Source: an uncultured virus (IMG/VR IMGVR_UViG_2061766007_000736) (taxonomy: Duplodnaviria > Heunggongvirae > Uroviricota > Caudoviricetes). From it: 64,000 nucleotides of DNA. Shown piece after piece: positions 22-64,000 of this stretch. Every line of letters begins with the position of its first letter. Position 1 is the first letter of the stretch. A program made the position numbers and the translations under genes. Under the pieces are notes generated by a model that did no database searches, was not told where the DNA came from, and worked only from the letters and a program-made list of their open reading frames with translations. Location: the IMG/VR virus record IMGVR_UViG_2061766007_000736; one strand, written 5' to 3'.

Positions 22-495
22 ATGGAATTACTCTCAAAATACAACCTTTCGGAAATATTTATGTTTATTATTGTTTTAGCTGTTGCAATTCAACAATGTG
101 TGAATTTTTTTGAATGGGTTAAAGTGCGCATTGACCGCGTTTTTAACAAAGAACATAATAACATTATTGAAAAAAATTAGCTAGAACGTCGTCTTCAATA
201 GGGTGGCGAAATAATGGATAACCTACAAATGAATCAAAACCAAACCGATCAGATTTTGAGTGATTTATCAATGAAAATTGATATGTTAATTAATTCAGAT
301 AAAGATAGTATCAAAGCTTATATCACTCAACGTCATCATTGGTTCTGTTATGAACAAGGATGGATTGATGATTTTAGTTTGGAGTGTTTAGAAAAACGTT
401 TTCAGCATTATGAAGATGAAGGCGGTAATTCTTTTATTGGACATTTTATGGATGAGCTAAGAGCTCTACCTAATCAAAAGCCATCAGAACAATAA
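22..495 (+). CDS. Holin-like membrane protein (TAG read-through)
   Basis: RBS GGGGAG, ATG at 22, N-terminal hydrophobic helix (IFMFIIVLAVAI). In-frame TAGs at 178 and 199 join it to ORF 214..495. The C-terminal Y..EGGNS motif resembles that of 8928..9221. Confidence 0.65.
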
Positions 496-521
496 AAAAC
501 AAGAGATAAAAGGAGATAGAT

Positions 522-3312
522 ATGGCAATTACTTCAAATTTATATCCGCCAATAATGCAGGATACAATGCCTGCTTTTATCAGAACAAAAACTTGTAAAA
601 TTTATTTTGCTTTGTCTACCTATAATACAATAACAGATATTAAAAACGTTCAAATTTCATTGGTTAACCAAACAACCAATGCTTCTGCTTTAAAAACAAC
701 TGCATATCCATCAGGAATAAAAATTGCGAATATGTTTTATGACCCTACAATAAAAGGAGAATATAACTATTATGTACAAATTGAACCGTCTGATTTAGAA
801 GCGGGCAGCTTTGAATTAAATCAATTTTATAAAGTACAATTAAGATTTACCGCGGCAGNNNNNNNNNNNNNNNNNNNNNNNNNNNTACAATAATATGCAA
901 TATTTTTCTGAATGGTCTAAAGTTTGTCTATTAAAAGGAATTGAGCAACCCTATTTATCTATTCGAGGGTTTGACAATACAAATGAAAATCAAGAAACAA
1001 TATTGACCAATTCTACAGTAAGTGTTATTGGCGAACTTACTTATACAAATAATCAAAATTTAGAAGGAGAATATTTAAAAAGCTATAATATAAAAATTTA
1101 TTAGGCCGGACAGTCAGATAATATTCTCTTTGATAGCGGTGAAATATATACTAATGTATATAACCCAAATGAACTCAACTATGATATTCCATATGAGTTG
1201 TCAAACGGTATTAATTATGTAATGACTCTAACATATACAACTAATAACGCATATTCATAGACTATCAATTACAATTTTACTATTATCGAATATGGACATA
1301 ATGAATTAAATGCTACTATTTCCGCAACAGCGGATGAAGAGACAGGTAGAATTAGAATTGATATCGTGTCTACTGATCCTGAAGAACGATTTATTGGAAA
1401 TATTACGATTCGAAGAACTTCATCAGAATCTAATTTTCATAAATGGGAAGATGTTAATACAGTTGCATATGCGACTGGAACATAGTTAAATTACAGTTGG
1501 TATGATTCAACCATACAAAGCGGTGTGTGGTATAAATATTGCGCGCAAAGACGAAATGCCAAGGGCGACCGCGGCACAATTATACAAATAGAAGAGCCCA
1601 TCATGTGTTCTTTTGAAGATATACTTTTAACCAAAAAAGATAGCCAACTTAAAGTAAAATTTAATCCAACTTTAACAGGTTTTAAATATCAAGTAACAGA
1701 ATCACAGCAGCTAGCAATAGGCGGAAAATATCCTTATATTAAACGCAACGCCGCAACCTATTTTAGAACCTTTTCTCTTGGTGGATTAATTAGTTCTTTA
1801 GTGGATTTAACAGATTGGTATGACCCACATTTTTATGATGATAAATTCCATAATAATGAAAATGAAATTGGAGCTTTTATAACAAAAGAAAAAATGTACG
1901 GGCAAGCTACAAAAACATTATATTAGAATTTTAATCAAAAAAATCGCATATATGATTAGAATAACTACATTTATTAGAGAGATTTTAGAAATAAAGTTTA
2001 TGAGTTTCTTTATAAAAATGATGTTATTCTATTTCGTTCTAAGGCGGAAGGTAATATTTTAATTAAATTAATGGATATTAATTTTGAACCTATCGGAACA
2101 CTAGGAAGGATGTTATATTCTTTTTCTGCAACAGCTGTTGAAATTGATGATGCTACAATAGCTAACTATGATAAATATAATATTCAGAATTTAGGACATT
2201 ATGAACCTTATGTTATGTATGAACATAAAAAAATTGGTCAAATTTCTGGTACTTATACTTCTTCTGATGGAAATATTCTGAATAGTAAATTGGCGGAAAA
2301 GCATAAAAAATCATCTAATGAAGGATATATAAATCAAATTGGCGGATTAACTTCATTAAAATTAGAAATTGAATCTTAGCCTTATGTTATTATAGAGCAA
2401 AATGGTGAATTAGTAAAAGCAACGACCGCGTCAGCAATTAATGCGGCAGATGCTATTTCTGGTTATATAGTGATTCTGAATAATACAGAAATGATTATTC
2501 GTTCTACTCAAGAACGCCGTTCAAAAATAACTGAAAATAATCAATTTACACCTGAAATTATTCATATTGGACATTTTGAATTAAAAGAACCCAATACTTT
2601 AATTACAGATTTACGTTTTAAATATCCAACAACCGCAACTATTGATTATACAGTTCTTTTACAAGAAGTAGAGGATACATCAAAATTAGTGAGTAGAATT
2701 TATTATTATTACAAACCTGGTCAACTTTATGGTNNNNNNNNNNNNNNNNNNNNNNNNNNNNNNNNNNNNNNNNNNNNNNNNNNNNNNNNNNNNNNNNNNN
2801 NNNNNNNNNNNNNNNNNNNNNNNNNNNNTAATGATGTAGATATTAATCGACATGTATTAGAAAATGGATATTTACAATTAAAAGAACCTGATATTTCATT
2901 TCAAGATTTATATTTTCACGGTATTCACTTAAAAGAACAAAATCTTGCTAATTAGACAACTGATTTAAAAGATGATGAATTTGTTTATACAAATGAAGAA
3001 TATGATTCTTTTAGTGAAATTATTAATCCTATTTCAAATGGCGTGTATACAGTAAATTATGCAATGGTTATGAATCCAATCTCGTTTAATGAAGGAGAAA
3101 ATGGATTATTAACTGTTACAGAAGATGGTGTTGTTAAAAATAATATTAATCAAAACTATGCTTTATTACTTCAACAATAGCAAAATTAGGCTATGAAACG
3201 ATATATTTATTATCACAATCATTGGTATCATTTTACTTAGACTCATGAAGTTCTTTGTCCTATTGATGGAATTATAAATTATACCTGCGAAATTGTGAAG
3301 GAGGTATATTAA
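522..3312 (+). CDS. Large virion structural protein (baseplate/tail region, ~930 aa, TAG read-through)
   Basis: ORF pieces 895, 1525, 2071 and 2470 share one frame and are separated only by TAG. Ends at TAA 3310-3312, overlapping the next ATG. The frame changes only across the first N gap. Product inferred from context. Confidence 0.65.
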
Positions 3313-5332
3313 TGTCATATAATTTTCCATATTTAAAAGATAATAATTTTTTAAAACATTTTAATAAAATTAATTTAAAATAGCAATATGTAAAAATTAT
3401 AGTTCTTAGCTTCCAATAGGAAAAACCAATAAGAGAAATTCAGGGACGCGTATCTGGAGGAAATTTTAATTTAGATGGCTCTTCTGGAATGAGAAGAACT
3501 GGGAATATTTCTTTAATAGCAGATGAGTATGAAAATAATTTTACAGATATACAACATTTATTAACAATAAATAAAAAAATTGAAGTCTTAATTGGCTTTT
3601 CAAATACAACAGATGAATATAAGGAATATCCAATTTTATGGTTTCCTCAAGGTATTTATGTAATTCTTTCACCAAATATTACCTATGATTTTAATGGAAT
3701 TAATATTTCATTAACTCTTCATGACAAAATGGCTTTATTAAATGGAGAGTGCGGCGGCACCTTGCCTGCGTCAGTAATCTTCAGTTAGATAGAAGATATA
3801 GACGAAGATGGGAATACTCAAATTACACAACCCACTATCTTTCAAATTATTTTAGAGTTAGTGAACCATTTTGGTGGAGAGCAATTAGGAAAGATTTTAA
3901 TTAGTGATATAGATAATAAGATAAAAAAAGTTATGAAATGGACTGGTTCAATTCCTTTATATCTATATCAATAGGTTGCTCAAGATGGAACTATATATAA
4001 TAGCTTTAGTACAAATTATGCTGAATTAAAACAAAAACAATAGATAGGAAATGGTACAATCCGCGAATTTTCATATGGAGAAGATATAGGTTATATTTTA
4101 ACTGATTTTACTTATCCAGGTGAATTAATTGGAAATGCGGGAGACACTGTTGTTACAATTTTAGACCAGATAAAAAATGTATTAGGTAATTATGAATATT
4201 TTTATGATTTAAATGGAAATTTTAGATTTCAAGAAATTAAAAATTATTTAAATACATCTTATTCAACTTTTCTGATTAACGAAATTAATGCAGGTAATTA
4301 TTTAGTTGATTATACAAATGGTAAGTCTGTGTATGTTTTTGAAGATTCAGATATTATTCAGTCTTATTCAAAAACTCCTCAATACTAGCAGATTAAGAAT
4401 GATTTTATAATATGGGGAAAACGGACATCAATAGAAGGTAAATAGATTCCTATTAGATACCACTTAGCCATTGATAAAAAGCCAACAGTAGGAAATGAAT
4501 ATAAAGTTTTCTTTTACACAGACCCAGATGATGGGATCTTAAAAGCAAAGAAACCCGCATATTTCAATTCAAAGAATGATTTTCCAACAAAAGGTGAAAT
4601 TGGAACATACTATTACGCGGCGGACGTTGGTATAGTTTACAAATGGGCAGCTGATGTAAAAACTTATTAGCAGACTCCCTATACGATAGAAAATATAAAA
4701 GCCACAGATTATAGAACTTAGTTATATATGGCTGGTGTTGCCAGTTAGCCTTTTGGGTTAAATAGTAATTATTATTATACAGAATTAAAAAATGAATGGC
4801 CTAAAATATATGATTTAAGAAATTCTCAATTTTTTGAATCAACTTTAGCGCAACCGAGTGATATAGATTTCTNNNNNNNNNNNNNNNNNNNNNNNNNNNN
4901 NNNNNNNNNNNNNNNNNNNNNNNNNNNNNNNNAGATGATTATGTTAATTGTATTTTTGAACCAGATAATCCAGATATAGTAATTATTGAAGCGGGAAGTG
5001 ATGAAGCAGATTCTTTACAAAGAGATTGCGAAAACCGCAAACAAGAATATGCTCAAGTTCGCCCTGAAATTTATTCAATGTTGGCGAATGGTGGCGTTTT
5101 AAGGTCTGCCTATGAATAGATACGAAAAGAACTATATCAATATACAAATTATAATGAAGAAATTTCATTAACAGTTTTACCAATTTATTATCTAGAACCT
5201 AATACTAGGATTACAATAAAAGATAAAAAAACTGGTATTTATGATGATTATGTAATAAAAACAATTTCATTACCATTGGATATAAATGGAGTAATGAATA
5301 TATCTTGTACAAAAGTATTAGAAAGAATCTAA
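3312..5332 (+). CDS. Putative baseplate hub/tail protein (~670 aa, TAG read-through)
   Basis: GGAGG RBS, ATG 3312, open except for TAGs. Motifs RRTGNISL, LHDKMALLNGECGGTLPAS and LPIYYLEPNTRITI are typical of phage tail/hub proteins. One N gap. Confidence 0.7.
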
Positions 5333-5348
5333 TTAAGGAGGAAAATTT

Positions 5349-6050
5349 ATGAGTTATCAAATTGGTCAATTTAGACGACCTCAAATAAATTCCTATTATA
5401 CTCCTTTAACTATGGAATTAGATTATCAAGAAACTCAAAGATTAGCAAATGAAAATATAGTTTTTCATGATGCTTGTGGTTCTTTATCTGGAGATAATAT
5501 TATAAACAATAAAAATAACTATTATTTACGTTTTGGGATTAGACAAAGATTAGATGCTGAACAAACTTTTTCTTTAAAACTTCAGAATAGTTTTGAAGCA
5601 GAAGATAATGAGCAATTAATTGAAACTTATACAATAAAAAGAGGAAACGGAATTTCTTATTTTGAAAATATTTTATCTCCAAATGAAACTTATAATAAAA
5701 TTATTTGGGAATTAGAAAGAACTTCTTTAGATTATCAAATTGTAAATTAGGATGGGTCATATGGAAGAATGTTGTAGTTATAGATAGTAAACTATTCAAG
5801 ATTAATAGACGTATTAACTAATTTAAAAAGCACTTATTCTAATTTAAATTATTTTACAAAAATAGGTATTCAAGGACCTCCATCTCTGTTAATGTGTATA
5901 AATGGAGAGCAAATTAGAATTGGTAAATCTGGAATCTATGAATTAAATAATGAAGATATTAATATTATTTCTATAAGTTTTGTTCCTAAAGAATCGACAA
6001 CAACTTCAGATGGACTTGATTATTTTATTATGGATTTTGAATATGAGTAA
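5349..6050 (+). CDS. Virion structural protein, hypothetical (TAG read-through)
   Basis: AAGGAGG RBS. ORF 5349..5750 continues through TAGs to KIGIQGPPSLLMCINGEQIRIGKSGIYE and TAA 6048-6050. Confidence 0.7.
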
Positions 6051-6067
6051 AAGGAGAGTAAAATAAT

Positions 6068-7602
6068 ATGTATTCATTTTATGGCGGAAGACCGGGTAAT
6101 TCTTTCATTATAGTTGCCGCTTATGAAAGTATTGCAGATATGGTCGCAAAATTTAAATTAGGGCCAAATTATACGGATGTTCATTATGATGAGCATGTAA
6201 TTATAAATACAATAAATAAAAATAATCCTGAGAATGGAAAAATTTATCGCCGCGGATATGATTTTAATAATGATATGGGTGGCGCAGAATATATTGGAAC
6301 TATCGTAGGTCCTGCAGGTAATGCTCCTATGCTAGAAATGACAACTATTTAGGATATTGAATCTAAACAGGCAGAAGAAAATTATTAGGAAAGATATTCT
6401 GAAGGTACTTACACTTTAGAAAATGGAAATTTAGTACCTGGAAAAACTCAAAATGGAACTTTTAATGATGATATTTCTTGGGCTTGTTATTCTGTTAGAG
6501 ATGCTAATCACGAAGATACTATTGCTTATATTGGATTTAAAATTCCATATTTAGTTATAGAATTTCAATCTTCTCAAGTTGAACCATATGTAAATGGTGT
6601 TTATGGAGATACGAGTTCTATAACTAAAATTGATGATGGTCAACATCCTTTTTATCAAAAACTGCAAATTAATATCCCAAAAGGCATTAAAGGAGATAGT
6701 ATAAAAAATTTAAAAGTTGTAACTGCAACTTCAGATATTGAACCTTATGTGGGACAAGCTGATGATGTTAATGCTAGCAGGCAAGTATTAGTATATGATT
6801 ATTATGATTATAATATTAATCAAGATGGTTCACCTAAAAAAATATATTTAGGTGATTATAATATGATTGATGATATTTCTATTGCGGAAGATGGTACTAT
6901 TATTATTAATTATAGTCATAATGATAATGTAGTTTGGAATAAAAAATTAAAATGGATAAATTCTATTTCATTAAATGAAAATACTGGTGCGTTTAAAGTA
7001 ATTTATAACCAATCTACTAATGCTGATGGGCAAGCAACTGAATATAATGTTCAATTAGATTGGGTAAAAGACATATCTGTAAATAGTAATGGTACAGTTA
7101 CTATTGATTATACAAAAAGCGCAGATAAAGTTTATAATAATTTAATTAAATGGGTAACTGGAATTACATTATTAAATAATGGAACTATGCAAATTCATTG
7201 GAATACAGGTGCTACTGACACAGTTCTTAATAAAATTGTAAAATGGATTAGTTCTGTTAATATTGCAAACGATGGAACTTTAACAATAGAATATAATAAT
7301 GGAGCAAATCCAACTACTTATTCTAAAATGTTTAAATGGATAAGTGATGTTTCTTTAGATAATAATGGTACATTAACAATTAATTATAATAATGATTCAT
7401 CTCCATCTGTTTTTACTAATGCAATCAAAAGTCTTTCAGACATAACAATCAACACGGGAGCAAATGAAGGGTAGGGAAGTCAAAAACTTGCTATTACATG
7501 GAATAATTCAAACGCACCTATTGAAATTGGTAATCCTATTAATTATATTATGGAAACCAGAATTGATAATGATAACCATTTATTAGTATGGTATTCAGAC
7601 CC
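6068..7602 (+). CDS. Baseplate/tail-fibre-like protein with ~33-aa KWI repeats (runs into gap)
   Basis: ORFs 6068, 6749 and 7550 are in one frame joined by TAG. Tandem repeats of KW(I/V)xxIxxxxNGTxxIxYN. May continue into 7662..8379. Confidence 0.7.
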
Positions 7603-7661
7603 NNNNNNNNNNNNNNNNNNNNNNNNNNNNNNNNNNNNNNNNNNNNNNNNNNNNNNNNNNN

Positions 7662-8379
7662 TCAATATATTATATAGGATTATAACCAAACTTCTATTAA
7701 TGGAAAAAATCAAACTATTGAAGAAGCTTTATCATCCATGGATAGCGTAGTACAAAATGCAATTAGTTCAGGTCAACCAATTCCAGTAACAAGTTTATCT
7801 CAAATGATTGCTGATAAATCTAAAATTTATTTATATCAAGGCCCAACTACTATTACCGAAGATCAAGTTTCTCTTGAGCCTAGTTATTTATATTATTTTA
7901 TAAATAATGAATTGCATCAAGGAGCTTTTTATGGAAATAATATTACTGCTGATTCTACTTTAGATGATACTTCTATGAATCCAGTTCAAAATAGAATTCT
8001 TACACAATTAATTACAACCCTTCAATCTCAAGTTTCTGCTTTACAAGAACAAATTTCTGGTGAAAGTTCTTCAGGTCTTGGAGACTATATCATTGATTCA
8101 GGAACTGCACAAGTTGTAGATATTGCTAAAAATTCAACTAAACAATATAAATTTACTTTTAAAGAAAGTTTTCAAGATAAAGATATTTCTCCTATATATA
8201 TTACTTTATCTGTAGGGACAGCTCAAAATAACTCTGGCTATCATGACGTTGAAGCTTGTTTAATTCATGATTCTATAACTACAACTGGTTTTACGTGCTA
8301 TGTTTGTAATGGGACTGGAGCAGTAAGATCTCCAAGAGTAACTTATATAGCAGTTCAAAAACGAGTTAATTCAGAATAA
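7662..8379 (+). CDS. Tail-fibre-like C-terminal region (5' end in gap)
   Basis: The frame is open upstream of ORF 7738 apart from one TAG. Contains DSTLDDTSMNPVQNR and ends ITTTGFT...VTYIAV, resembling fibre-tip/H-lectin-like domains. Confidence 0.55.
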
Positions 8380-8393
8380 TAAGGAGACTTCAT

Positions 8394-8708
8394 ATGGCAG
8401 AAACTAATGGATTCTTTGGAAATCTACAAGGTCCTTTCTTAGCAAATGAAGAGTTATTCACAAAGATCCAAGAATAGTGCTCTAGTTAGATAAATTATCT
8501 TTCAAAATTAGGAATTCATTATGTTGGGGACTTTGATTTAGATTTAGAAGGAAAAAGATAGAATCGACAAATTTTTATAAGAATAAATGATATAGAGTTT
8601 CAATTAGGAAAAACTCGAATGTTAGAATTAGAAGATGTATAGATTACATCTATCCAATTTTAGCAAGATATGAATTAGATGTGTTATATTGATTATCAGT
8701 ATAAATAA
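8394..8708 (+). CDS. Small structural protein, hypothetical (6 in-frame TAG; absent from ORF track)
   Basis: AAGGAG RBS, MAETNGFFGNLQGPF...INDIEFQLGKTRMLELED...YIDYQYK then TAA. Resembles the C-terminal part of 5349..6050. Confidence 0.7.
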
Positions 8709-9287: not shown

Positions 9288-10049
9288 TTACAGCGTTTTC
9301 ATCCATGCCGTAATTTTGGGAACATAATAATCCCTGTAACCGTCCTCACTAGGATGAATACCGTCTGTAAGATATACTTCTGCAAGGGCAGCAATATATC
9401 TAATAGGTGGGACAAGAATATTAAGGTCACAAATCGGAATGCCCCACTTCTCACAGCACGATTTTGCCATTGCGTAATGAGAATTTGGTGTTCTTGAATC
9501 AAAATTCGGTGTGGTTTTAGGCACGATAATATATCCGATTTTTTTACCGGGAAACTTGTTGATAGCTGCCTTAAGCATAGTTTCAAATGCGCCTGCGAAT
9601 GTAGAAGTATCAAGGGTGTCACTGTATCCGCTTGTGATTGTCCCGATAGGAACATTATATCCGGCATCATTAAGTCCACCTTCAAGAATGATATAATCGG
9701 CATCTGAACGCATATCTGCTATTGATGCCCAAATTCCTGTGTTATTATCATAATCCGCTATACATCTACCATTTTCTCCAAGATTTTGAACAGTCATATT
9801 GTTCTCAGTTCCAATGATGCCAGCATACCCACCTGTATATGATGCTCCATAGCAAATGCTGTCACCTGTAAAAGTAGCGATTTTCCCGTTTAATGGATTG
9901 CTCATACTAATTTCTCCTGTTCCAAGGACTAATTCGCCCGTCTTAAGATAACCATATTTTCCAATAGGAATATCAGCAGATGATTCAATGTCAGTGTTTA
10001 ATAGATTGATTTTTGTCACACCATCAATCGTGACTTTATTTATTGCCAT
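9288..10049 (-). CDS. SGNH/GDSL hydrolase with phage adaptor N-terminus
   Basis: Blocks GDSI, GGLND and DGIHP. The N-terminus MAINKVTIDG is shared with neighbouring genes. Confidence 0.85.
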   Translation of the reverse strand: MAINKVTIDGVTKINLLNTDIESSADIPIGKYGYLKTGELVLGTGEISMSNPLNGKIATFTGDSICYGASYTGGYAGIIGTENNMTVQNLGENGRCIADYDNNTGIWASIADMRSDADYIILEGGLNDAGYNVPIGTITSGYSDTLDTSTFAGAFETMLKAAINKFPGKKIGYIIVPKTTPNFDSRTPNSHYAMAKSCCEKWGIPICDLNILVPPIRYIAALAEVYLTDGIHPSEDGYRDYYVPKITAWMKTL

Positions 10050-10062
10050 ATCATTACCTCCT

Positions 10063-10914
10063 TTATTCCACTTTTTCTTCGAGTTTCAGTGACAGGGTCC
10101 CCTCCGCTCTTGTTACGCCTACCATGTATCCTGAACCAAGATTATACATGATGAAAGGCTCGTCTGTTCCATTATCTTCATCAACAAGACTTGTATTGCC
10201 AATAATAGGAGTTGCTTCGTTGAGAAGTTCAACATCACAAATATACGCCGTTCCATTAAGTGTGACTCTCCATGTTTGACCAAGCGAAAACCAAATTTCA
10301 CTCATTTCCTCACTACGAAATACATTCCTTCCATTGTCATTTTGAATTGATGTTACTGACCCATCAAAGGCAGTTTCATAATTTCCGCTTGGTTCTGGTG
10401 GTGTAGGAGTAGGAGTATAATTGTACCATGTTACTCCATCTAATTGTGCTAATGTTACTGTTTTATTATTATAAGTAGTAGGAGTTGTCGCTGTAATTGC
10501 ATTTCCTACAAAGGTATTAGGGTAATAAACAGTCTCCGTTAAATTTGTATTATCTTCAAATTCCCAATATATAGTATGAGAAGGAACGGACGGTGTAGAA
10601 CTAGAACCAGAAGTAACAATTATCTCTGTCCCATAAGCATTTGCTACCTCAGACATAGAAGCACCGCCTTGTACATTAACTACAATAGAAGAATATCCAT
10701 CAGCATTGTCATCCGAAGCAAGATATGTTCCATTTAATGTAATAGTTTTAGTAGTTAGTGTAGATGAGCCACCTGTTTGTCCAGTTCCAAGTACTCTTTC
10801 ACCAGTATTTAAATGACCGTATTTTCCTGCGGCAATATCATTGGAGGAAGTTACAGTATCTGTAGTTAAATCAATTTGGGTGATACCATTTAATATAATT
10901 TTACTTATAGCCAT
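10063..10914 (-). CDS. Modular tail-fibre/adhesin-like protein
   Basis: MAISKIILNG..IDLTTDTV head, TKTITxNGTYxASxDxxDGYS module, HTIYWEF...AQLDGVTWY module. Confidence 0.7.
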   Translation of the reverse strand: MAISKIILNGITQIDLTTDTVTSSNDIAAGKYGHLNTGERVLGTGQTGGSSTLTTKTITLNGTYLASDDNADGYSSIVVNVQGGASMSEVANAYGTEIIVTSGSSSTPSVPSHTIYWEFEDNTNLTETVYYPNTFVGNAITATTPTTYNNKTVTLAQLDGVTWYNYTPTPTPPEPSGNYETAFDGSVTSIQNDNGRNVFRSEEMSEIWFSLGQTWRVTLNGTAYICDVELLNEATPIIGNTSLVDEDNGTDEPFIMYNLGSGYMVGVTRAEGTLSLKLEEKVE

Positions 10915-10928
10915 ATTGCCACCCCCTC

Positions 10929-11771
10929 TTACGCTGTTCTTATTAATGACATATAATTACTATTTGCACCAGTCGAACTTAATTTAACATAAGCAACATT
11001 TGATGGTAAATTTATTCCGTTTAATGTACCAGTACTCAGATTACTATCGTTTTGGTCAACAGTCCCACTACTAGATACATCAATAGTACGAACAAAAGTT
11101 TTATTACTATCATATAAACCAATGTTTGTCCAAGTTCCAGTTTTATAAGTAAATGTCATACTAGGGTCAACTAATGTAAAATCTGATGCATAGTACCACT
11201 CTTGTTCAATTTCTTCACCACTGTAATCAATAGTTGTGTTAGCAGTACACTTACTAAAATCAATTAGTTCCGTATTTAATGGAATATTTGAAAGTTCATA
11301 CCATGTTACACCATCTAACTGTGCAGTTGTCACGGTTTTACTATTATATGTTTGTGGTGTTGTTGTTGTGATTGCATTGGATATAAATGAATCGTCCCAA
11401 TATGCAGTAACTGTCGTATTTGTATTATCAGAAAATTCAAAATATATTGTATGTGCCGTAGCAGATGACCCGCTTCCGCCACTTGCTGTTCCCGCTGTCT
11501 TAACTCCCAATGATGTATAAAAATATTTTCCTTGTGCAACATCAGATGCTACTGCTGTTGTATCAGATATATCAACTGCTGTAATTTCTCTGACCGTACC
11601 GCCATGAGAATCAAGAGTATCAACTACCGAAATGGCAGGGGTACCACTACTTTGTGTCACATCAGTAATTACAATATCAGCTTCCATCCACTTCCCACTT
11701 GTAGTAAGTGTTCGTGTTTGATTTTCAACGGTTGTCAGTGTCTGACCTTTATAAGTTACTGTTGTACTCAT
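10929..11771 (-). CDS. Modular tail-fibre/adhesin-like protein
   Basis: DTTAVASDVAQGKYFY module plus a second copy of the HTIYFEF...AQLDGVTWY module. Confidence 0.7.
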   Translation of the reverse strand: MSTTVTYKGQTLTTVENQTRTLTTSGKWMEADIVITDVTQSSGTPAISVVDTLDSHGGTVREITAVDISDTTAVASDVAQGKYFYTSLGVKTAGTASGGSGSSATAHTIYFEFSDNTNTTVTAYWDDSFISNAITTTTPQTYNSKTVTTAQLDGVTWYELSNIPLNTELIDFSKCTANTTIDYSGEEIEQEWYYASDFTLVDPSMTFTYKTGTWTNIGLYDSNKTFVRTIDVSSSGTVDQNDSNLSTGTLNGINLPSNVAYVKLSSTGANSNYMSLIRTA

Positions 11772-13194
11772 GTCACACCTCCGTTATACACAGGAAGAGT
11801 AACACTGGAAGTCTGTCCGTCCGTTCCTGTCAACGTGATGACATTACTGGATATTGAAAGATCATACTTTGTGTCCGAATCAGTACCACCACCAGAGATG
11901 GGCTGATTGGGCATCAGCATGGCATACAATTCTGAAGGAGTGCAGAAATCATAATCTGTTCCTCTAGTATACTGACCCAGCTTCTGCATGAGATAACTGT
12001 ACATCGTTGCAGAATCAGAAGCATCATGTGTAGTCACAATAGCAAATCCATGATTCACACATACCTCTTCCACAAGGTCATCAATTTGGGACTGTCCTAC
12101 ATATTCAAGAATCACTCTGTCTTTGAAATACGGATATGCGTATCCGAAAAGGTCACCGTATTCATAATACATAGTTGCCCACGAATCGATCCGCTTATCT
12201 CGTCCATAGATGTATCCTTCGCCACCAGCCTTAAAAATACCGTTCACCGTGAATCCGTATGCTTCAAGTTCTTTCTTGTTGCCACGGAAATACTTATTGA
12301 TAAAATCAAAATCATCTACGTTTATATTTGTGATCTGTTCCGCATTGTGGGAGACAACCTCGCCACCAGCCGCTACGCATAAGCGCATATAATCCAAATT
12401 GGTCTTGTATGGGTCATCTGTCACGCAAGCCTTTACCGCCTCTGGGATTGCCGCAATGTAATAAGGAATATTTGCATTGGTATACAGCGCATGTAGAGAC
12501 TTGGTCTGGTCACGCCTTAAATCGTCCGTACCCATGCAAATATATCCCTTTGTTAACGTTTTAGTCACAGGGGGAGCAGAATTGATATATGTTCTGTAAT
12601 TGGAGTACACATCCGCAAGAATTTCGAAATTGTCTTCTGCCACTTCTTTTTTCTGCAAATAATAAGTTTGGTCATTGTAGTACAGAACAGCCATGTATGC
12701 CCCATTTGAGGGAATTGTAAACTCCGTCCACTCATCTTGATATGTCCGTACATATGCTTCAATTTCAACCTTGCTGGAATCAAAAATGATGATTGACGGC
12801 ATCTCTGCATTCTTGCTGTCAAAATGGATGGGGGAGTTCTGATAACGGTATTCCTCTCCGGGTTTGACAGAAATCAGATTGGAATAAGGGGTACAAGATG
12901 TATTTGTTCTTGCTGCCTGCGATTCCCATATAGTTTCTGTAGAAGGAATCTGAGTGTACGCATAATCATTATCCGGGTCATAATAATACCCAGCTGCCCA
13001 GTCGGAATATACATCATACCATTCCGTTTCCAGTGTGGGATTGTTGCCACCTGAGCTGCTTTGTGCTGTGCCTGTTGTCTGTACGCCATTTGCGGCAAAG
13101 AAAACTTTGCCGCTGGCCACATCTTCTNNNNNNNNNNNNNNNNNNNNNNNNNNNNNNNCGTCCCATCTGATAAAGCGACTTTATTAGTTGCCAT
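11768..13194 (-). CDS. Adaptor-fused polysaccharide deacetylase (NodB-like) protein
   Basis: Start MATNKVALSDGT at 13194 joins ORF 11768..13120 across a short gap. Motifs CMGTDD, GGEVVSH and IVTTHD resemble the NodB/CE4 fold. Confidence 0.6.
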
Positions 13195-13206
13195 AAGTCA
13201 CCTCCA

Positions 13207-13791: not shown

Positions 13792-14023
13792 AATTTATAT
13801 TTCCTCCTATATAGACGGTTCTACCGCCGCTTAAATTTGACACTGATTCAACTTTAATCGGATTAATTTTAATATTATCTGTTAAAAATTTATCTTTAGT
13901 TTTAAGAGTTTTTTCTTCAAAATCAGGGTCAACAATATATTCTTCAGTGTAAGGGTTTTGTCCCCCTTTTATTTTTACAACTGTTTGTCCGAGGGTTACT
14001 TTAACTTTTATATCTCTTGCCAT
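13784..14023 (-). CDS. Small hypothetical virion protein
   Basis: GAGG RBS, motif SNLSGGRTVYIG, overlaps the next gene. Confidence 0.65.
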   Translation of the reverse strand: MARDIKVKVTLGQTVVKIKGGQNPYTEEYIVDPDFEEKTLKTKDKFLTDNIKINPIKVESVSNLSGGRTVYIGGNINYG

Positions 14024-14025
14024 AA

Positions 14026-14448: not shown

Positions 14449-14495
14449 AGGCTCTATCTCCTTATGTTGCTCGATTAAATCGACCTTTAGTCCGG

Positions 14496-15986: not shown

Positions 15987-16001
15987 ATTCTACTTCCTTT
16001 C

Positions 16002-19763: not shown

Positions 19764-19777
19764 TTGATACCTCCTTT

Positions 19778-22837: not shown

Positions 22838-22847
22838 TTTATCCTCC

Positions 22848-23309: not shown

Positions 23310-23314
23310 CCTCC

Positions 23315-51539: not shown

Positions 51540-51906
51540 TGTATTAAATGAAATATATGATGCTTATAAGGGTTGTAAAGAAGAGGCTTCTTCAATGTGG
51601 AAAAGTGAATATTGCTGTAGTGCAAAAGAAGCAAAGCAAAGAGACATAGAAGATGAAGAAGATTTAAAATATTTTCAATCATTGCTTCAAAAAATAGACA
51701 ATAACATCTCTAATAAAGAAGAAAAAATTATAAAAATTTTAACAGATGAATTGTGTTATTGTTATTATGATAACTGTGAGTTTGGAAATTGGGACAAATA
51801 TCAAGATACAAGATGCGATGATTGTTATAGAAAATATCAAAATTGGCGGTTATCTGAAGAAACTGCAAAATCAATAGCAAAACAAATTATTAGGGAGTTT
51901 GAATAA
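51529..51906 (+). CDS. Hypothetical Cys-rich protein
   Basis: 125-aa ORF with GGAGG RBS, overlapping the gyrB end. Confidence 0.65.
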   Translation: MEINVLNEIYDAYKGCKEEASSMWKSEYCCSAKEAKQRDIEDEEDLKYFQSLLQKIDNNISNKEEKIIKILTDELCYCYYDNCEFGNWDKYQDTRCDDCYRKYQNWRLSEETAKSIAKQIIREFE

Positions 51907-51908
51907 AA

Positions 51909-52166
51909 ATGCAAAATGATTTAATATGTCCAAACTGTAATTCCCTACTTTATTGGAGTCTTGACGAATGGGGTAGAACACCATGGCATTTACATTGTGA
52001 TAAATGTTCTATTAATATTGGTGTAACTAAACAAAATAAAGCTATTGAATTAATTCAAAAATATCATAAACCAAACACTTGGATTGAATATTATAATAAT
52101 GAGATTAAAATATTATTTGAAAATAATAAACAAATAATATTTAAGGAGATAGATAATGCAAAGTGA
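51909..52166 (+). CDS. Hypothetical zinc-finger protein
   Basis: CPNC...CDKC. Confidence 0.6.
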   Translation: MQNDLICPNCNSLLYWSLDEWGRTPWHLHCDKCSINIGVTKQNKAIELIQKYHKPNTWIEYYNNEIKILFENNKQIIFKEIDNAK

Positions 52167-54456
52167 TTTAATAAAAGAATTAAGTACAAACTTTATTGAA
52201 TATGCCGCATCTGTTAATTCAGACAGAGCAATACCAAATGCTACTGACGGTCTTAAACCAGTTGCTAAAAGAATTCTTTATGGAGCTTTTACAGGAGGAA
52301 GGACTAGTAATAAACCTCATGTAAAGTGTGCGAAGATTGTCGGAGATGTAATGGGATCCTATCATCCTCATGGCGATTCATCTATATATAGTGCATTAGT
52401 TCGTCTTGCCCAAGACTGGGTAATGCGTTATCCTCTTATTGATTTTCACGGCAATGTTGGCAATCAGGCTGGAGATGAACCTGCCGCATCTCGTTATACA
52501 GAAGCAAGACTTTCTAAATTAACAGAAGAAGGTATGCTTCAAGGGTTAAAGAAAAATAATGTTGATTTCATTCCTAATTATGATGAAACAACAGAAGAAC
52601 CTATAGAGCTACCAAGTATTTTTCCAAATCTTCTTTGTAATCCCAATAGTGGTATTGGTGTTGCTATGGCTTGCTCTTGGGCGCCTCATAATCTTGGGGA
52701 AGTGGCCGCGGCGATTAATCAATATTTAATTGGTGAAGAACCAATGCTGCCGGGTCCAGATTTTCCAACAGGAGGAGTTATTATCAACTCAAAAGACATT
52801 CCTGTAATTATGCGGACTGGACATGGTAGTGTAAAAATTCGTAGTAAATATGAAATTGATAAGCAAAAAATCGTATTTACAGAAATCCCCTATGGGACAA
52901 CTATTGAAGGGTTAATGACAGAAATTGGTAAAATTTCTGATGATAAAGAAATTGAAGGAATTGATAATATTCGTGACGAATCTAATAAAAAAGGTATTAG
53001 AATTGTTATTGAATGTGATAAAGGCATTAATCCAGCAAATATTGTAAATAAATTATTTGCAAAAACAAATTTACAGAGTTCATTTAGCTATAATCAAGTT
53101 GCTCTTGTTAATAAGGTGCCAACTGAATTAAATCTTAAAAATTGTATTAAAATTTATGTTGACCATAATATTGATTGTATTGTAAGAGAGACTAAATTTG
53201 ATTTAAATAAAGCTATTGATAGACTTGAAATTGTTAATGGTTTGTTGCGGGCGCTTGAGGATATTGACAACATCATAACCCTGATTAAGAGTTCTGAAAA
53301 TGCGACTGCCGCAAAGGAAAAATTAATTGCAAAATATCAGTTTACAGAAAATCAAGCTAAGGCAATTTTAGCTATGCGTCTGTCTTCTCTTGCTAGACTT
53401 GAAAAGATAGAATTAGAGAAGGAAGCAAAAGAATTAGAAAATAAAATTGCAGATTTAAAAGATATTTTAACAAATGAAGAAAGGCAAAAAGGTATTCTTA
53501 AATCTCGCCTTTCTGATATTGTAAAGAAATATGGAGACGCCCGCCGCACAGAATTAACTCAGATTGATATTAAACCAGAAGATAAGGTAATTGAAGAAGT
53601 CATTCCAGAAGATTGCGTTGTAATTCTCTCTCAGGGTGGAAGTATTAAAAGAGTTCCGCAAAAATCTTTTAAGGTTCAGCGCAGAAATAGTAAAGGCGTA
53701 AAAACAAAAGATGATATTGTAATGTCTACTATTTCAACTAACACTATTGATAATTTACTTTTATTTACTAAAAAAGGTAAAATGTTTAAAATCATAGTTG
53801 ATGAAGTGCCAGTTGGAACTAATGCTTCAAAAGGAGTCCATGTGGGAACATTAATTAATATGGACCAGGATGATGAAGTAATTGCAATCACTTCTCTCGC
53901 AAGAAGCAATACAGCAAAATATGTAGTATTCTTTACTAAAAAAGGTTTAATGAAAAAGACCTATTTAGAGGAATATACAAAAGTAAAACGTAGTACAGGT
54001 ATTGCGGCAATTAAAATTAATGATGGTGATTCTATTGCTAATGTAGAATTTATTAATGAAGAAGATATTCTCGTAATTACTAAAAATGGAATGTCTATTC
54101 ATTTTGAAAGTAAACTTGTAAATCCCATTGGAAGAATTGCAGCAGGTGTAAAAACTATTAAACTTGATGACGATGATGAAGTCGTAGTTGGTATCCCGAT
54201 TAAAGCTGATGATAATATTGCAATCTTTTCAACAAAAGGATATGGAAAAAAGACTTCTGTAAAAGAATTTACAGTACAAGGACGCGGCGGCAAGGGCCTT
54301 ATGATTTATAGACCAAGCACTGTTTACGGTGAAATAGCTGGAGCGGCAGTTGTATCTAATGATGATACTATTTTACTCACAGGTCAGCCTAATTCTATAT
54401 GCATTGCTGCATCAGATTTACCTTCATTAACCAGAACCAGTTTTGGTAATATTATG
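52156..54456 (+). CDS. gyrA: Type IIA topoisomerase subunit A (GyrA/ParC-like; 3' end in gap)
   Basis: DGLKPV, YHPHGDSS, AASRYTE active-site Tyr, GPDFPTGG, C-terminal pinwheel repeats. Confidence 0.93.
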
Positions 54457-54693
54457 NNNNNNNNNNNNNNNNNNNNNNNNNNNNNNNNNNNNNNNNNNNN
54501 NNNNNNNNNNNNNNNNNNNNNNNNNNNNNNNNNNNNNNNNNNNNNNNNNNNNNNNNNNNNNNNNNNNNNNNNNNNNNNNNNNNNNNNNNNNNNNNNNNNN
54601 NNNNNNNNNNNNNNNNNNNNNNNNNNNNNNNNNNNNNNNNNNNNNNNNNNNNNNNNNNNNNNNNNNNNNNNNNNNNNNNNNNNNNNNNNNNNN

Positions 54694-54853
54694 NGTTGAA
54701 CATAATTATATGGATGATGTTGCTATTACATATGCCAAAACCAAAGAAGAAGCCATGGAAAAGTTCAAAGAATTTTATAATGATGTAAATAGTAAAAATG
54801 TATCTGAACCATATTTCAATTATGGTGGAGTTGCGATACTTACTGATTACTAA
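54694..54853 (+). CDS. Hypothetical protein, partial
   Basis: VEHNYMDDVAITYAKTKEEA...ILTDY then TAA. 5' end in gap. Confidence 0.45.
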
Positions 54854-54893
54854 TAGAAANNNNNNNNNNNNNNNNNNNNNNNGAGGAGAAAAA

Positions 54894-55211
54894 ATGTTTA
54901 AAAAAATTAGTCAAAAAATATTAGCCTATAAATACGAAAAAGCTAAAAATATTTATATAGTTGGTTGTTGGGCGCGATGGGGTGTGCTTCCCGCAAAATT
55001 TAGCGGAAAATTTGATAAAGAAGGAAATCCATTAACAATTTATTATACAGATTGTAATGGTACCCAAGACCTCTATTATATTCATGAATGGTATAAAGAA
55101 ACCACAGGGTCTACCATAGCTTATTTTTTTAATGAAGACCAAGCAGAAACTTTAGCAAGATATTTAAATGAAAAGGAGAATAAATGGAAGAGTGGACTAT
55201 TAGAAGTTTAA
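54894..55211 (+). CDS. Hypothetical protein
   Basis: GAGGAG RBS, MFKKISQK... Confidence 0.6.
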   Translation: MFKKISQKILAYKYEKAKNIYIVGCWARWGVLPAKFSGKFDKEGNPLTIYYTDCNGTQDLYYIHEWYKETTGSTIAYFFNEDQAETLARYLNEKENKWKSGLLEV

Positions 55212-56323
55212 TAGATGAATTAAATAGATTAACAGAACTTTATGACAAAGGGACTCCAGAAGTTTCAGATGAATATTGGGACAATCTTTATTTTAAACTA
55301 AAACAGATGGAGGAAGAAACTGGTCTTATTTATCCAGACTCGCCAACACAAAGTATTCATTTTGAGAAAGTTTCTGAATTAAAAAAAGTTAAACATAATC
55401 ATCCAATGCTTTCTCTTGATAAAACTAAAAATCTTGATGATATAAAATCATTTATTAAAGGATATAGCTGGATTTCTATGGCAAAATTAGATGGATTAAC
55501 TTGTTCATTAAAATATGTTAATGGTGAGTTAGTTTCTGCTGAAACAAGAGGAAATGGCATCGAAGGTGAGGATATTACTCATAATGCAAAAGTTATTTCG
55601 TCAATCCCTCAAAAAATTAATTATATAAATGAATTAGTTGTAGATGGTGAAATTATTTGCACATATGAGGATTTTGAGCAATTTGAGACTTTATATAAAA
55701 ATCCTAGAAATTTTGCAAGCGGAAGTATAAGGCTACTTGATTCACAAGAATGTGCAAGAAGACATCTTACATTTGTTGCTTGGGATTTCTTTTGTAATAG
55801 TCAAATTTATGAACAATATTTTTATAATGAATATCTTAATTGGCCTCATAATATTCAAAAAACACTTTCTTTAAAACTTCAAATTTTAGGAGATTTAGGA
55901 TTTACTGTTGTTCCCAATTTAACAGATTGTGATGTGGATTCGGTCGATAGGGCGGTTTCTATTATTAAAGAAAATTGCGTTTATCCCATTGATGGAATTG
56001 TTTTTAAATATGATGATGTTGATGATTATGCGGCGGCTGGCCGCACAGATCATCATTTTAAAGGCGGTTTAGCATATAAGTTTTATGATGAAACTTATGA
56101 AACTAATTTAAAAAATATTGAATGGACAATGGGGAGGACAGGAGTTCTTACTCCAGTAGCAGTATTTGATCCTATTAATATTGATGGTTCAACAATAGAA
56201 AGAGCCTCTCTTCATAATATAAGTATTATGAAAGAACTATTAGGAACTCCATATATAGGACAAAAAATTCAAGNNNNNNNNNNNNNNNNNNNNNNNNNNN
56301 NTGCAGAAAAAATTCCACAATAA
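55184..56323 (+). CDS. ligA: NAD-dependent DNA ligase, N-terminal part (adenylation + OB)
   Basis: HPMLSLDK, KLDG, TRGNG, NPRN, DGIVFK, AYKF, GRTG, ASLHN. Ends at TAA 56321. Confidence 0.9.
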   Translation: MEEWTIRSLIDELNRLTELYDKGTPEVSDEYWDNLYFKLKQMEEETGLIYPDSPTQSIHFEKVSELKKVKHNHPMLSLDKTKNLDDIKSFIKGYSWISMAKLDGLTCSLKYVNGELVSAETRGNGIEGEDITHNAKVISSIPQKINYINELVVDGEIICTYEDFEQFETLYKNPRNFASGSIRLLDSQECARRHLTFVAWDFFCNSQIYEQYFYNEYLNWPHNIQKTLSLKLQILGDLGFTVVPNLTDCDVDSVDRAVSIIKENCVYPIDGIVFKYDDVDDYAAAGRTDHHFKGGLAYKFYDETYETNLKNIEWTMGRTGVLTPVAVFDPINIDGSTIERASLHNISIMKELLGTPYIGQKIQXXXXXXXXXXAEKIPQ

Positions 56324-56407: not shown

Positions 56408-57136
56408 ATGGCAAAAACACAAGATTTAACAGGGATGAGTTTTGGAAGATGGAAAGTTTTAAATTTAGCATTTAGAAAAAATGGAAAAATATATTGGCAT
56501 TGTCAATGCCAATGTGATAAAAAAACAGAAAAAGATATTCAAGGACAACATTTAAAAGAAGGACGCTCTAAAAGTTGCGGTTGTTTAAGAAAAGAACTTA
56601 TCTCTTAGAAAACTAAAATTAATATGATAGGACAAAAATTTGGACATTTGATTGTTATTGCTTAGGCAAAAAGCAGTAAAGATAGACATGCTCAATGGCT
56701 TTGTCAATGTGATTGTGGAAATCAAAAAATTATTTTAGGAAAAAGTTTAAGAAATGGTAGCACTCAATCATGCGGATGCTTAAAATCAAAAGGTGAAGAA
56801 AAAATTATAAAACTTTTGAAAGAAAATAATATTTCTTTTTAGACAGAAAAAAGTTTTAATAATTGTAGATATACTGATACTAATTTTAAAGCAAAATTTG
56901 ATTTTTGGGTTAATAACTAGTATATTATCGAATATGATGGAAAACAGCATTTTGGAATTGGAGGATGGAATGATGAAAATAATTTTAAAATTATTCAATA
57001 GCATGATTATTTTAAACAAGCATGGTGTAAAGAAAATAATATTCCATTGATTCGTATTCCATATACTCATTTATCTTCTCTTTCTATAAAAGATTTATTA
57101 TTAGAAACATCTCAATTTAAGGTATAGGAGGTATAA
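56408..57136 (+). CDS. Putative homing endonuclease: Cys repeats + Vsr/DUF559-like nuclease (TAG read-through)
   Basis: WHCQCQC/WLCQCDCG, SCGC twice, FDF..IEYDGKQH..HD..LIRIPY. 243 codons to TAA. Confidence 0.8.
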
Positions 57137-60024: not shown

Positions 60025-60040
60025 NNNNNNNNNNNNNNTA

Positions 60041-61612: not shown

Positions 61613-61650
61613 ATAAGAGTAAAAGTTAGTTGATTAACGAGGAGAAAAAA

Positions 61651-62639: not shown

Positions 62640-62664
62640 AAAAGGGGATTTAATCCCCTTTCTT
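62640..62664 (+). terminator. Intrinsic terminator
   Basis: AAAGGGGAT-TTA-ATCCCCTTT-CTT. Confidence 0.7.
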
Positions 62665-62682
62665 ATTATAGAAAGGATAATT

Positions 62683-64000
62683 ATGGCAAATATTGATATT
62701 CTTAGTATTTAGCCTCATCAAGTCAGTAGAGATTTAAGAGGATATTCTATCTTTTTCTATGGTGAGAGAGTTTAATGGTTGGCTCACCCTATATAGTAAT
62801 ATATAGTAAAAAATTCTTAGAAAAATAGGGGACGGCTGAGATGCTTGCCCTAGCGGAAGTTATTAAGTAATATTAATAACACGCACAACGCATTGGTATG
62901 AAACTAATTTTAAGGGAGATTGCTCAAAAATGAACAACCAAGAAATAATAAAGGCTTATGAAGATGGCGCTTCTTTAGCTTCATTAAGCAGACAAACAGG
63001 TTTATCTACTTATAAAATTAAAAAAATATTACAAAATAATTCAGTTAAAATTAGAACTCGTTTTGAACAGACTATTTTTACAAATATGTCAAGAGGAAAA
63101 CAGATTAATCATAATTATTTTGATGAATTAAATAATGAAAAAGTATACTATTTAGGTTTTCTTGCGGCAGATGGATGCGTAAGACCAAATAGAAATGAAA
63201 TTAAAATAGGATTATCTGCAATAGACCGAGAATGGCTTGAAGAATTTAAATTAAAATTAAATTCAGAACGAGAAATCGAAGACTATATTACTGGTAAAGG
63301 ATTTGCTGTTAGTGAATTAAAATTTTCATCATTAAAAATAAAAACTGAATTAGCTAAATACAGTATTATTCCTAATAAAACTTATTTAGGAATTACAATG
63401 AAAGCTATTCCAGATAAATATAAATTAGCTTTTATTAAAGGATATTTTGATGGTGATGGTTGTTTTGTTTTTAATAAAAACACAAAACAGTGTTCTTNNN
63501 NNNNNNNNNNATTTTAGAAGAAATATCTTATTTTTTTAGAGCTGGTAATATTTATTCACATGGGAAAAATTTTGAATTAGATTTTTCAACTAACCCAACA
63601 TTAAAAATAATGGAATTATTTTATAATTTANNNNNNNNNNNNNNNNNNNNNNNNNNNNNNNNNNNNNNNNNNNNNNNNNNNNNNNNGGACGCCTCAAAAG
63701 AGGATGAAAGTTTATGCTGAACTTATACGAATATGAAGTATAAGAATTATAAGATAAAAAACTTATAAGATAACAAAATGCCAAAAAGCGGTAAAACAAC
63801 AACTGCTTCAAAATTTTAGAATAATTTGCTTCTGGCTTTTGAAAAAGGTTACAATGCTATTCCAGGGGTTATGGCTCAACCCATTAATAACTGGGCTGAA
63901 TTTAGAAAAGTTCTTAGACAATTAAAAGACCCAAAGGCAAAAGAAAGATTTTATACTATTACAATAGACACATGTGATATTGCATATGATTATTGCACAA
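62683..64000 (+). CDS. Sak4-like/AAA_24 ATPase; exons 62683-62766 and 63781->64000
   Basis: Joining the exons restores Walker A FFYGE|PKSGKTT, followed by LLLAFEKGY and Walker B TITIDT. Two TAGs. Runs off the window. Confidence 0.85.
62767..63780 (+). mobile_element. Group I intron
   Basis: Interrupts Walker A and ends in G. Internal guide TTGGCTCACC (62779-62788) is the exact reverse complement of the spliced junction GGTGAG|CCAA. GTAA-loop hairpin 62789-62806, P7-like GCAT/ATGC pair (~62890/~63714), two 3' hairpins. Confidence 0.85.
62930..63720 (+). CDS. Intron-encoded LAGLIDADG homing endonuclease
   Basis: Two motifs, YYLGFLAADG and AFIKGYFDGDG, with an N-terminal HTH. Two gaps near the 3' end. 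Confidence 0.85.

Follow-up and report, generated by a model that had tools for sequence, protein, structure and literature searches.

We analyzed a 64-kb stretch of DNA from an uncultured virus (IMG/VR record IMGVR_UViG_2061766007_000736), called the window throughout, which is a phage genome fragment with 31% G+C in which 3573 bases in 29 runs are masked as N. The subject of the analysis is the codon TAG, which serves as a sense codon in these genes and, judging from alignments with relatives, very probably encodes mainly or wholly glutamate (Glu) and not the glutamine (Gln) of genetic code 15. Pfam domains identified in the window include those of a tape-measure protein, a holin, a CW_7/peptidase lysin, a CHAP lysin, GyrB-like and GyrA-like topoisomerase subunits, an NAD-dependent ligase, an RNA ligase, and GIY-YIG and LAGLIDADG endonucleases.

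A DNA search of GenBank phages found no close relative of the window. We identified 39 IMG/VR loci matching the protein of 61630-62634 at 66-85% amino-acid identity, and 3 complete relatives (G001, G002, and G003; 133-144 kb, completeness rated 99-100%) are collinear with the window over 113.5 to 59.7 kb, 58.5 to 4.1 kb, and 71.2 to 127.7 kb of their genomes, respectively. Together with 2 fragments, G004 and G005, also from IMG/VR, these are the 5 relatives compared below. The public sequencing runs containing window DNA are labelled as bovine or other animal gut metagenomes; 2 of these runs may be the source of the window itself, and none of those listed was an RNA run. Homologues in cultured Clostridia phages, along with the Gram-positive-type holin and lysins, point to a Clostridia host; bacterial genomes searched with the window endolysin yielded no relative.

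In-frame TAG codons in the window

With only TAA and TGA taken as stops, the window holds 68 open reading frames (ORFs) with 166 in-frame TAGs, which are present in roughly half of the genes, ~30 genes being TAG-free. Under code 11, non-overlapping ORFs of at least 60 amino acids cover 69.9% of the window, and their coverage becomes 92.3% with TAG as a sense codon, 71.3% with TGA, and 85.0% with TAA; the rise from 70% to 92% bears out the first-pass annotation, made from the sequence alone, which had described genes broken only by TAG and restored by read-through. Among ORFs with little masking, 49 terminate at TAA and 12 at TGA, and 1 leaves the window end. The TAGs are distributed evenly along genes without accumulating at the 3' ends, and the base following them (position +4: A 63, G 47, T 31, and C 16) shows a pattern like that following GAA and GAG (A 368, G 321, T 237, and C 156). 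The complete relatives carry 278-411 TAGs per genome, used in the same manner, and 462 aligned TAG-TAG pairs were found among relatives. Contigs of 4 public runs covering 24100-38400 gave 2553 strain differences in total; among the 40 listed, 27 of the 39 in called genes were synonymous and none hit a TAG codon, which gives no TAG-specific signal. TAG in the window is thus confirmed as a sense codon, and it would account for ~13% of Glu codons if read as Glu. Editing of UAG in RNA was considered and set aside, as there was no evidence for it, as was programmed read-through, for which no special downstream context was seen and the +4 base was like that of GAA/GAG.

TAG-rich genes include those for tail, baseplate, tape-measure, nuclease, and homing-endonuclease proteins. 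Individual TAG-bearing genes are as follows.

895..8708, plus strand: baseplate and tail module with 6 TAG-bearing genes, at 895-3312 (11 TAGs), 3312-4982 (11), 5078-5332 (1), 5349-6050 (3), 6068-7789 (4), and 8394-8708 (6), all on the plus strand
24134..24370, minus strand: Gln-rich protein of 78 codons with 8 CAA, 4 CAG, 0 GAA, 0 GAG, and 2 TAGs, the latter at codons 52 and 69 (24215-24217 and 24164-24166, minus strand)
25132..25620, plus strand: RuvC-like resolvase gene with 8 TAGs and 5 GAA/GAG codons; TAGs at codons 19, 24, 46, 63, 95, 97, 141, and 158 (first bases 25186, 25201, 25267, 25318, 25414, 25420, 25552, and 25603, plus strand)
25895..30490, minus strand: virion or tail protein gene, 1531 codons, 17 TAGs
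32130..38513, minus strand: tape-measure gene (PhageMin_Tail domain), 2127 codons, 36 TAGs
56408..57136, plus strand: homing-endonuclease-like gene (6 TAGs) that separates the two halves of the gene for NAD-dependent DNA ligase
59319-60041, plus strand: endonuclease-like gene, 9 TAGs
60041-61594, plus strand: conserved gene of unassigned family, 6 TAGs

Residues aligned with TAG in relatives and outgroups

Window proteins with X at each TAG were aligned to the DNA of the relatives by tblastn and the facing codon was read. All 39 subjects gave 672 pairs (E 268, TAG 86, Q 48, D 48, and K 44), and because many of the 39 are fragments over the same few sites, the count was narrowed to the 5 large records and to pairs with no gap and at least 4 of 10 flanking residues identical. 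Against these 5 relatives, TAG was paired with a sense codon 191 times at 89 sites, facing E in 50.3%, Q in 11.5%, D in 7.9%, and K in 7.3% of pairs. As a yardstick, true Glu codons of the window face E in 68% and Q in 2.8% of pairs, and true Gln codons face Q in 65% and E in 6.9%. Under these substitution profiles of the window itself, the log likelihood of the TAG pairs was -404 for E, -558 for Q, -585 for D, and -673 for K. By site majority, the 89 sites were divided into E 43.5, Q 11.1, D 7.5, and K 5.9, and the sites with at least 3 agreeing sense-codon relatives were E at 11, Q at 1, and Y at 1. An all-against-all comparison within the clade (the 5 relatives) gave 1290 pairs at 629 sites, with E at 51% and Q at 12.7% and log likelihoods of -2594 for E and -4111 for Q; here the invariant sites, by the same rule, were E 84, Q 9, D 6, K 2, and G 1. 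TAG columns dominated by Gln, which the first-pass annotation had named as the outcome that would speak against its assignment, were not what we found, Glu ranking first in both the 5-relative and the clade sets.

Most alignable TAG sites of 25895..30490 face E or TAG in relatives, and the TAGs at codon 361 of 895-3312, codons 378 and 470 of 3312-4982, and codons 12, 139, and 284 of 60041-61594 are invariant Glu in relatives. For the Gln-rich protein, our counts agree with the first-pass annotation that every Gln is CAA or CAG and that 2 TAGs stand in a gene lacking GAA and GAG; relatives have E, E, TAG and TAG, E, E at the 2 sites, and these TAGs would be the sole Glu residues of the protein. 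The label of ThyX-like that had been given to 60041-61594 was dropped, as a Pfam ThyX match was not found, and a sequence search of PDB with the RuvC-like and 60041-61594 proteins returned chance-level matches only. Three TAGs can be compared with internal repeats or paralogues of the window.

21732..21734, minus strand: TAG in GDYHMTNV[TAG]A, facing Glu in the paralogous repeats GDYHMTSTEA and GDYIMTDAEA
42909..42911, plus strand: TAG in AQWLCQC[TAG]CGNQKII, facing Asp in the paralogue AQWLCQCDCGNQKII at 56408-57136
49187..49189, plus strand: TAG in HHSE[TAG]TKRKI, a repeat of NUMOD3 type, with Glu opposite the TAG in the following repeat, HHSDETKKKI

These 3 alignments, which had been among the grounds for proposing Glu, were reproduced as described, and the TAG at 42909..42911 also has Asp opposite it in that protein's second module. 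The NUMOD3 gene is seen only in part because of the masking.

We searched 1.84 billion cluster representatives with HMMER for RuvC outgroups and obtained 150 proteins at ~30-72% identity. Summed over the 8 TAG columns, the residues in the 80 proteins with identities of 35-45% were E 185, D 69, I 63, K 54, and Q 19, and the 45 proteins below 35% identity had E 85, D 39, K 30, and Q <14, so that these 125 distant representatives had E 270 and Q at most 32, against background frequencies of 6.8% for E and 3.9% for Q. The column of codon 63 (IME[TAG]V, following the catalytic-motif Glu) held E 44, D 27, and Q 1 in the 80 proteins, and that of codon 141 (NDD[TAG]ADA) held E 37, I 20, and V 10. The public protein database entry of the window RuvC (25132-25617) has Q at all 8 TAGs, that is, a table 15 translation, and we left the 120 best database homologues out of the evidence, as they are close relatives translated with code 15, in which Q is an artefact of that translation. 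Columns consisting of E and Q only were observed in these close homologues, as expected from the same artefact. For 60041-61594, 8 homologues from cultured Clostridium, Clostridioides, Enterocloster, Fusobacterium, and Desulfovibrio phages had E at codon 7 in 4 of 8 and, at codon 139, E 3, D 3, and Q 2; residues varied at the remaining sites.

A further set of outgroups comprised phAss-1 (OQ749652), a distant relative of the clade with 25 genes matching G001 at ~34% amino-acid identity, and the cultured standard-code Enterocloster phages PMBT24 and CB473P3. TAGs of the clade and window were paired with these 3 outgroups 233 times at 202 sites (E 65, D 29, R 22, S 18, and K 18), with log likelihoods of -592 for E and -639 for Q. 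The TAGs of phAss-1 itself served as a positive control: their 132 pairs at 48 sites had Q 30, N 17, K 15, A 14, D 13, S 9, and E 7, and the best model by the same method was Gln, whereas in the same alignments with phAss-1 the clade TAGs face E 43, D 17, S 14, and R 14 times in 150 pairs. The method is thus able to return Gln, and the 2 lineages differ.

Suppressor tRNA and the reading of TAG

Each complete relative has a tRNA array of 9-24 tRNAs with exactly 1 tRNA with a CUA anticodon (tRNA-CUA; 3 of 3 genomes), and by synteny the array starts 2-3.4 kb beyond the left end of the window. The CUA tRNA that the first-pass annotation had proposed to look for in the rest of the genome was found in the 3 complete relatives, beyond that end, and not in the window. 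A pattern search identified tRNA-CUA in 11 IMG/VR contigs. The clade tRNA-CUA folds into a canonical cloverleaf, in which the D loop has nine bases, the anticodon stem five pairs, and the variable loop five bases. In most of its forms (L131-L141), a T before base 1 could pair with A73, and ARAGORN draws an acceptor stem of 8 pairs. In G003, a transfer-messenger RNA (L073 5804-6081) with the tag peptide ADNYTYQMAA adjoins the array. Pyrrolysine was rejected as the inserted residue; tRNA-Pyl has a short D loop, a three-base variable loop, and a six-pair anticodon stem, unlike the cloverleaf found here, the ARAGORN label of "Pyl" reflects the anticodon only, and pyl genes were not searched.

The marks of a Gln-type tRNA, known from Escherichia coli glutaminyl-tRNA synthetase (GlnRS) and the bacterial amidotransferase GatCAB, are a weak U1:A72 first pair and G73. 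Both are found in the tRNA-Gln(UUG) of the clade phages, and U1 and G73 occur in 2 of the 3 phAss-1 suppressors. In contrast, among distinct sequences of the clade tRNA-CUA, the 1:72 pair is C:G, G:C, or G.U and never U:A, and position 73 is A or C, so that the clade suppressor is not of Gln type; the tRNA-Gln ancestry that had been named as an outcome contrary to Glu is thus not indicated in the relatives. The identity set of E. coli glutamyl-tRNA synthetase (GluRS) comprises G1:C72, U2:A71, U11:A24, U13.G22, and a four-base variable loop. All forms of the clade tRNA-CUA have U11:A24, and most have G.U at 2:71, like the tRNA-Glu of the phages. Their anticodon loop reads CUCUAAA, and U13.G22 with a four-base variable loop is confined to the G003 form, whose GUCU/GGAC D stem and four-base variable loop are those of the G003 tRNA-Glu. 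The GUGG/ACAC D stem and anticodon loop of tRNA-CUA equal those of the phAss-1 tRNA-Glu(CUC) except at base 36. Taken as a whole, the body of tRNA-CUA is ambiguous, fitting Glu, Asp, and Lys types alike, and a BLAST search of the suppressor against GenBank phages gave scattered, uninformative matches (tRNA-Trp, Arg, and other suppressors). RF-1 (release factor) and tRNA-synt_1c (Glu/Gln synthetase) domains were not found in any of the 5 relatives. We also observed that phAss-1 has 3 distinct tRNA-CUA genes (62442-62610 and 105744-105820 in OQ749652), of which one, of 91 bases, has a long variable arm (Ser/Leu/Tyr-like) and 2 are short with U1 and G73; the long-arm suppressor raises the question of whether more than 1 residue is inserted at TAG in that phage.

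From these alignments, we consider it very probable that TAG is read mainly or wholly as Glu by this phage and its clade of ~130-145 kb cattle-gut phages, with TAA and TGA as stops; the preference of the first-pass annotation for Glu over Gln is supported, Glu having ranked first in every comparison with enough sites. It is likely, though somewhat less so, that this is a clade of cattle-gut Clostridia phages in which a suppressor not of Gln type makes TAG Glu within a standard-code host while phAss-1 reads it as Gln, and, as a part of the same reading, that this Glu code has not been described for any virus or prokaryote. The phage-encoded tRNA-CUA of the array just outside the window would decode TAG. 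A host enzyme would charge it, as a phage synthetase or release factor was not found, and this would most simply be GluRS; in many Gram-positive bacteria this enzyme is non-discriminating and tolerates C36 as well as G36. Amidation by GatCAB requires U1:A72, and since tRNA-CUA lacks that pair, the glutamylated tRNA may escape GatCAB and its Glu stay Glu. TAG codons would delay full-length late proteins until the suppressor is expressed, and the identity of the host synthetase that recognizes the suppressor tRNA would determine which residue a recoded stop receives.

Several observations weigh against Glu. No tRNA gene was found in the 64-kb window, so its own suppressor was not seen, and an exact-match search of IMG/VR and JGI metagenomes with its left end gave no match and no extension. 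Some TAGs face other residues: codon 359 of 3312-4982 is invariant Gln and codon 355 of 895-3312 invariant Tyr in relatives, and among internal paralogues TAG faces Lys in YNQL[TAG]PVV vs YNQLKPVV and Arg in VVS[TAG]LD vs VVSRLD. The proposed Glu site N[E]IGNKYGKL had to be given up, as VVN[TAG]IGNKYGKL is not opposite Glu in the paralogue VIDMTGQTFGKL, and the window's own paralogues have Met or Leu. The result from PMBT24 and CB473P3 alone was weak (48 pairs: E 11, L 8, and D 7), with close log likelihoods of -130.7 for E, -132.7 for D, and -134.9 for Q, and a stricter flank filter left 11 pairs with D 7 and E 0. Pfam bit scores, calculated for 7 window genes with TAG as E, Q, D, K, Y, S, L, or W (1 gene had no Pfam match), did not discriminate Glu from Gln, as E, Q, D, and K lay within ~2 bits: RuvC scored Q 19.7, S 19.5, K 18.4, and E 18.2; DUF5048, Q 33.7 and E 32.2; GIY-YIG, K 35.4 and E 33.5; AAA_24 scored E and Q equally, and CW_7 was the only gene with E highest (53.1 vs 52.4 for Q). 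In the tRNA, a 23-mer spanning the T arm and 3' acceptor is exact in 27 bacterial loci, and ARAGORN calls tRNA-Lys at all 25 of the 25 called loci; the phage tRNAs nearest by identity are the tRNA-Asp of G001 (0.59) and the phAss-1 tRNA-Glu(CUC) (0.586), with narrow margins. A mixture fit also assigned a Gln-like share of 0.14 in the window and clade sets alike.

That TAG is the Gln of ordinary code 15, as public databases already translate this phage, is very improbable in our judgment, even though Gln is the second commonest partner of TAG (11.5-12.7%, four to five times its share at true Glu codons), is invariant at 9 clade sites and 1 window site, and raises the Pfam RuvC and DUF5048 scores by 1.5 bits over Glu. 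The Gln profile falls below that of Glu by ~150 log units in the window and ~1500 in the clade, true Gln codons face Glu at 6-8% only as against 50% for TAG, outgroups have acidic residues or Glu at RuvC columns 63 and 141 and Q in 1 of 80 proteins at column 63, the suppressor is without U1:A72 and G73, and the same method does give Gln for phAss-1. Decoding may instead be ambiguous, mostly Glu and partly Gln, through partial amidation of the Glu-tRNA or a near-cognate host tRNA-Gln, which would make TAG sites mixtures. The fit of E 0.64-0.70 and Q 0.14 in both data sets is in keeping with this, and the Gln partners are not enriched in CAG (33 CAG vs 131 CAA; window overall, 195 CAG vs 490 CAA), so that a CAG-to-TAG mutation path is no obvious cause of the Gln excess. 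Yet such an excess is also expected if TAG arises where Glu and Gln are both tolerated, and the tRNA does not have the U1:A72 needed by GatCAB, and we regard a mixed decoding as unlikely.

The Lys-like acceptor and T arm, or the Asp-like D arm, of the tRNA could be taken to mean that TAG is Lys or Asp, a reading to which the 25 tRNA-Lys calls, the nearness of the G001 tRNA-Asp, and the paralogues with Lys or Arg opposite TAG lend something, as does an anticodon loop (CUCUAAA) that differs from that of tRNA-Lys(CUU) at position 36 only. It is barely plausible beside the pair counts, in which Lys stands at 7-9% and Asp at 8% of TAG pairs, the log likelihoods of -673 and -585 vs -404 for E, and the invariant sites, which number 84 for E as against 2 for K and 6 for D. 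Almost no probability attaches to the absence of any recoding, with the genes as broken pseudogenes or TAG read through by context. The window itself carries no suppressor tRNA, but its frames are interrupted by TAG only and coverage is restored with TAG as sense, TAG positions are conserved in the 462 TAG-TAG pairs, the +4 context is ordinary, and strain variants in TAG-bearing frames are mostly synonymous. Glu thus remains the reading that we prefer.

Distribution of TAG among genes and comparison with known systems

Genes for topoisomerase, ligase, RNA ligase, kinase, and further probable early proteins are TAG-free, and we identified 2 longer TAG-free regions in the window.

9288..21500, minus strand: tail-fibre and esterase cassette, TAG-free, with GDSL/SGNH esterase and Big_2 domains
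49626..56323, plus strand: replication genes, TAG-free, encoding GyrB-like and GyrA-like subunits and the N-terminal half of DNA ligase

The cassette has 35-46% G+C vs 24-33% elsewhere and is almost wholly without counterpart in the 5 relatives, and TAGs occur there only in the low-G+C conserved N-terminal parts of 16556-17320 and 19778-21943. It looks like a host-range module newly acquired from a standard-code source. A group of 4 genes at 22287-24091, also TAG-free and with 73-90% identity to relatives in most comparisons, lies amid TAG-bearing structural genes and may encode abundant virion proteins kept without TAG. The NAD-dependent DNA ligase is divided between 2 ORFs, with the adenylation and OB domains at 55184-56323 and the HhH and BRCT domains at 57142-57978; in G001-G003 the halves match as distinct pieces with ~110 bases between them, which may represent an intron or a naturally split ligase. 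Homing-endonuclease-like genes are unusually dense, at 42804-43952, 48034-49630, 56408-57136, 58709-60041, and 62930-63604, all in the replication module, with 3 sharing the cysteine motif AQWLCQC.CGN and the rest of NUMOD3, GIY-YIG, and LAGLIDADG types. As every one of them carries TAGs, these genes appear adapted to the phage code.

Recoding of stops in phages is already known, and our comparisons support Glu as the residue of TAG as the new part. A search of the full-text literature, with supplements that may hold exceptions outside its scope, brought up no phage for which TAG or UAG is reported to be read as Glu, and no description was found in the literature of efficient natural insertion of Glu at UAG by a phage tRNA. 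If true, the reading breaks the rule that TAG recoding in phages means Gln only and can draw on no host synthetases but those for Gln and Trp, and it poses the questions of which host enzyme glutamylates a CUA tRNA and why its Glu escapes amidation. Gene callers and databases using table 15 would mistranslate these phages, with Gln put at ~1 in 8 Glu positions; the window RuvC is stored with Q at 8 TAGs, some of them at positions that are acidic family-wide. Related phage lineages would also be able to differ in the residue assigned to a recoded stop.

In its account of phages differing in code from their host, the preprint of Borges et al. on recoded phages (bioRxiv 10.1101/2021.08.26.457843) describes only TAG to Gln and TGA to Trp, argues that only the Gln and Trp synthetases are open to such hijacking, and reports an early/late gene split, which the gene-wise TAG pattern of the window resembles. 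TAG is likewise treated as Gln in a 2022 metaproteomic validation (PMC9523058) and in a 2026 jumbo-phage survey. As these sources portray the code 15 gut phages (crAss-like, Lak, and the clades of Borges et al.), they share with the window and its clade the in-frame TAGs mostly in late, structural, and lytic genes, TAG-free early and replication genes, a phage tRNA-CUA (seen here in the complete relatives), the absence of an own synthetase, and the gut habitat. Unlike in those phages, where TAG aligns with Gln, it aligns here with Glu, and the suppressor is without U1:A72 and G73.

Another close system is phAss-1, for which the text of its authors describes recoding of TAG as Gln (PMC10607447) and which, from that account, is like the clade in its ~136-kb genome, large tRNA array, TAG in ~40 ORFs, and predicted Clostridia host. 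The clade differs from it in TAGs that face Glu and in 1 suppressor not of Gln type, where phAss-1 has Q at 30 and E at 7 of 132 pairs and 3 suppressors, 2 of them with U1 and G73. The clade has 30-32% G+C as against 44.5% in phAss-1, and the two hardly ever have TAG at the same position (2 TAG-TAG pairs).

Outside phages, UAG encodes Glu in the eukaryotic nuclear codes of peritrich ciliates and Blastocrithidia (NCBI tables 30 and 31), in which UAA is Glu too and release factors are changed. The assignment of UAG is therefore alike, whereas here TAA is the main terminator (49 of 61) and a virus would bring the change into a standard-code host. The amber suppressors of E. coli (supE and the engineered tRNA(CUA) series) insert a residue at UAG with a CUA tRNA and host synthetases, and CUA anticodons are mostly captured there by GlnRS or lysyl-tRNA synthetase. 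The clade would resemble them in combining a CUA tRNA with a host synthetase and differ from them in the insertion of Glu, and, if this holds true, it would provide a natural Glu-inserting amber suppressor for genetic-code engineering.

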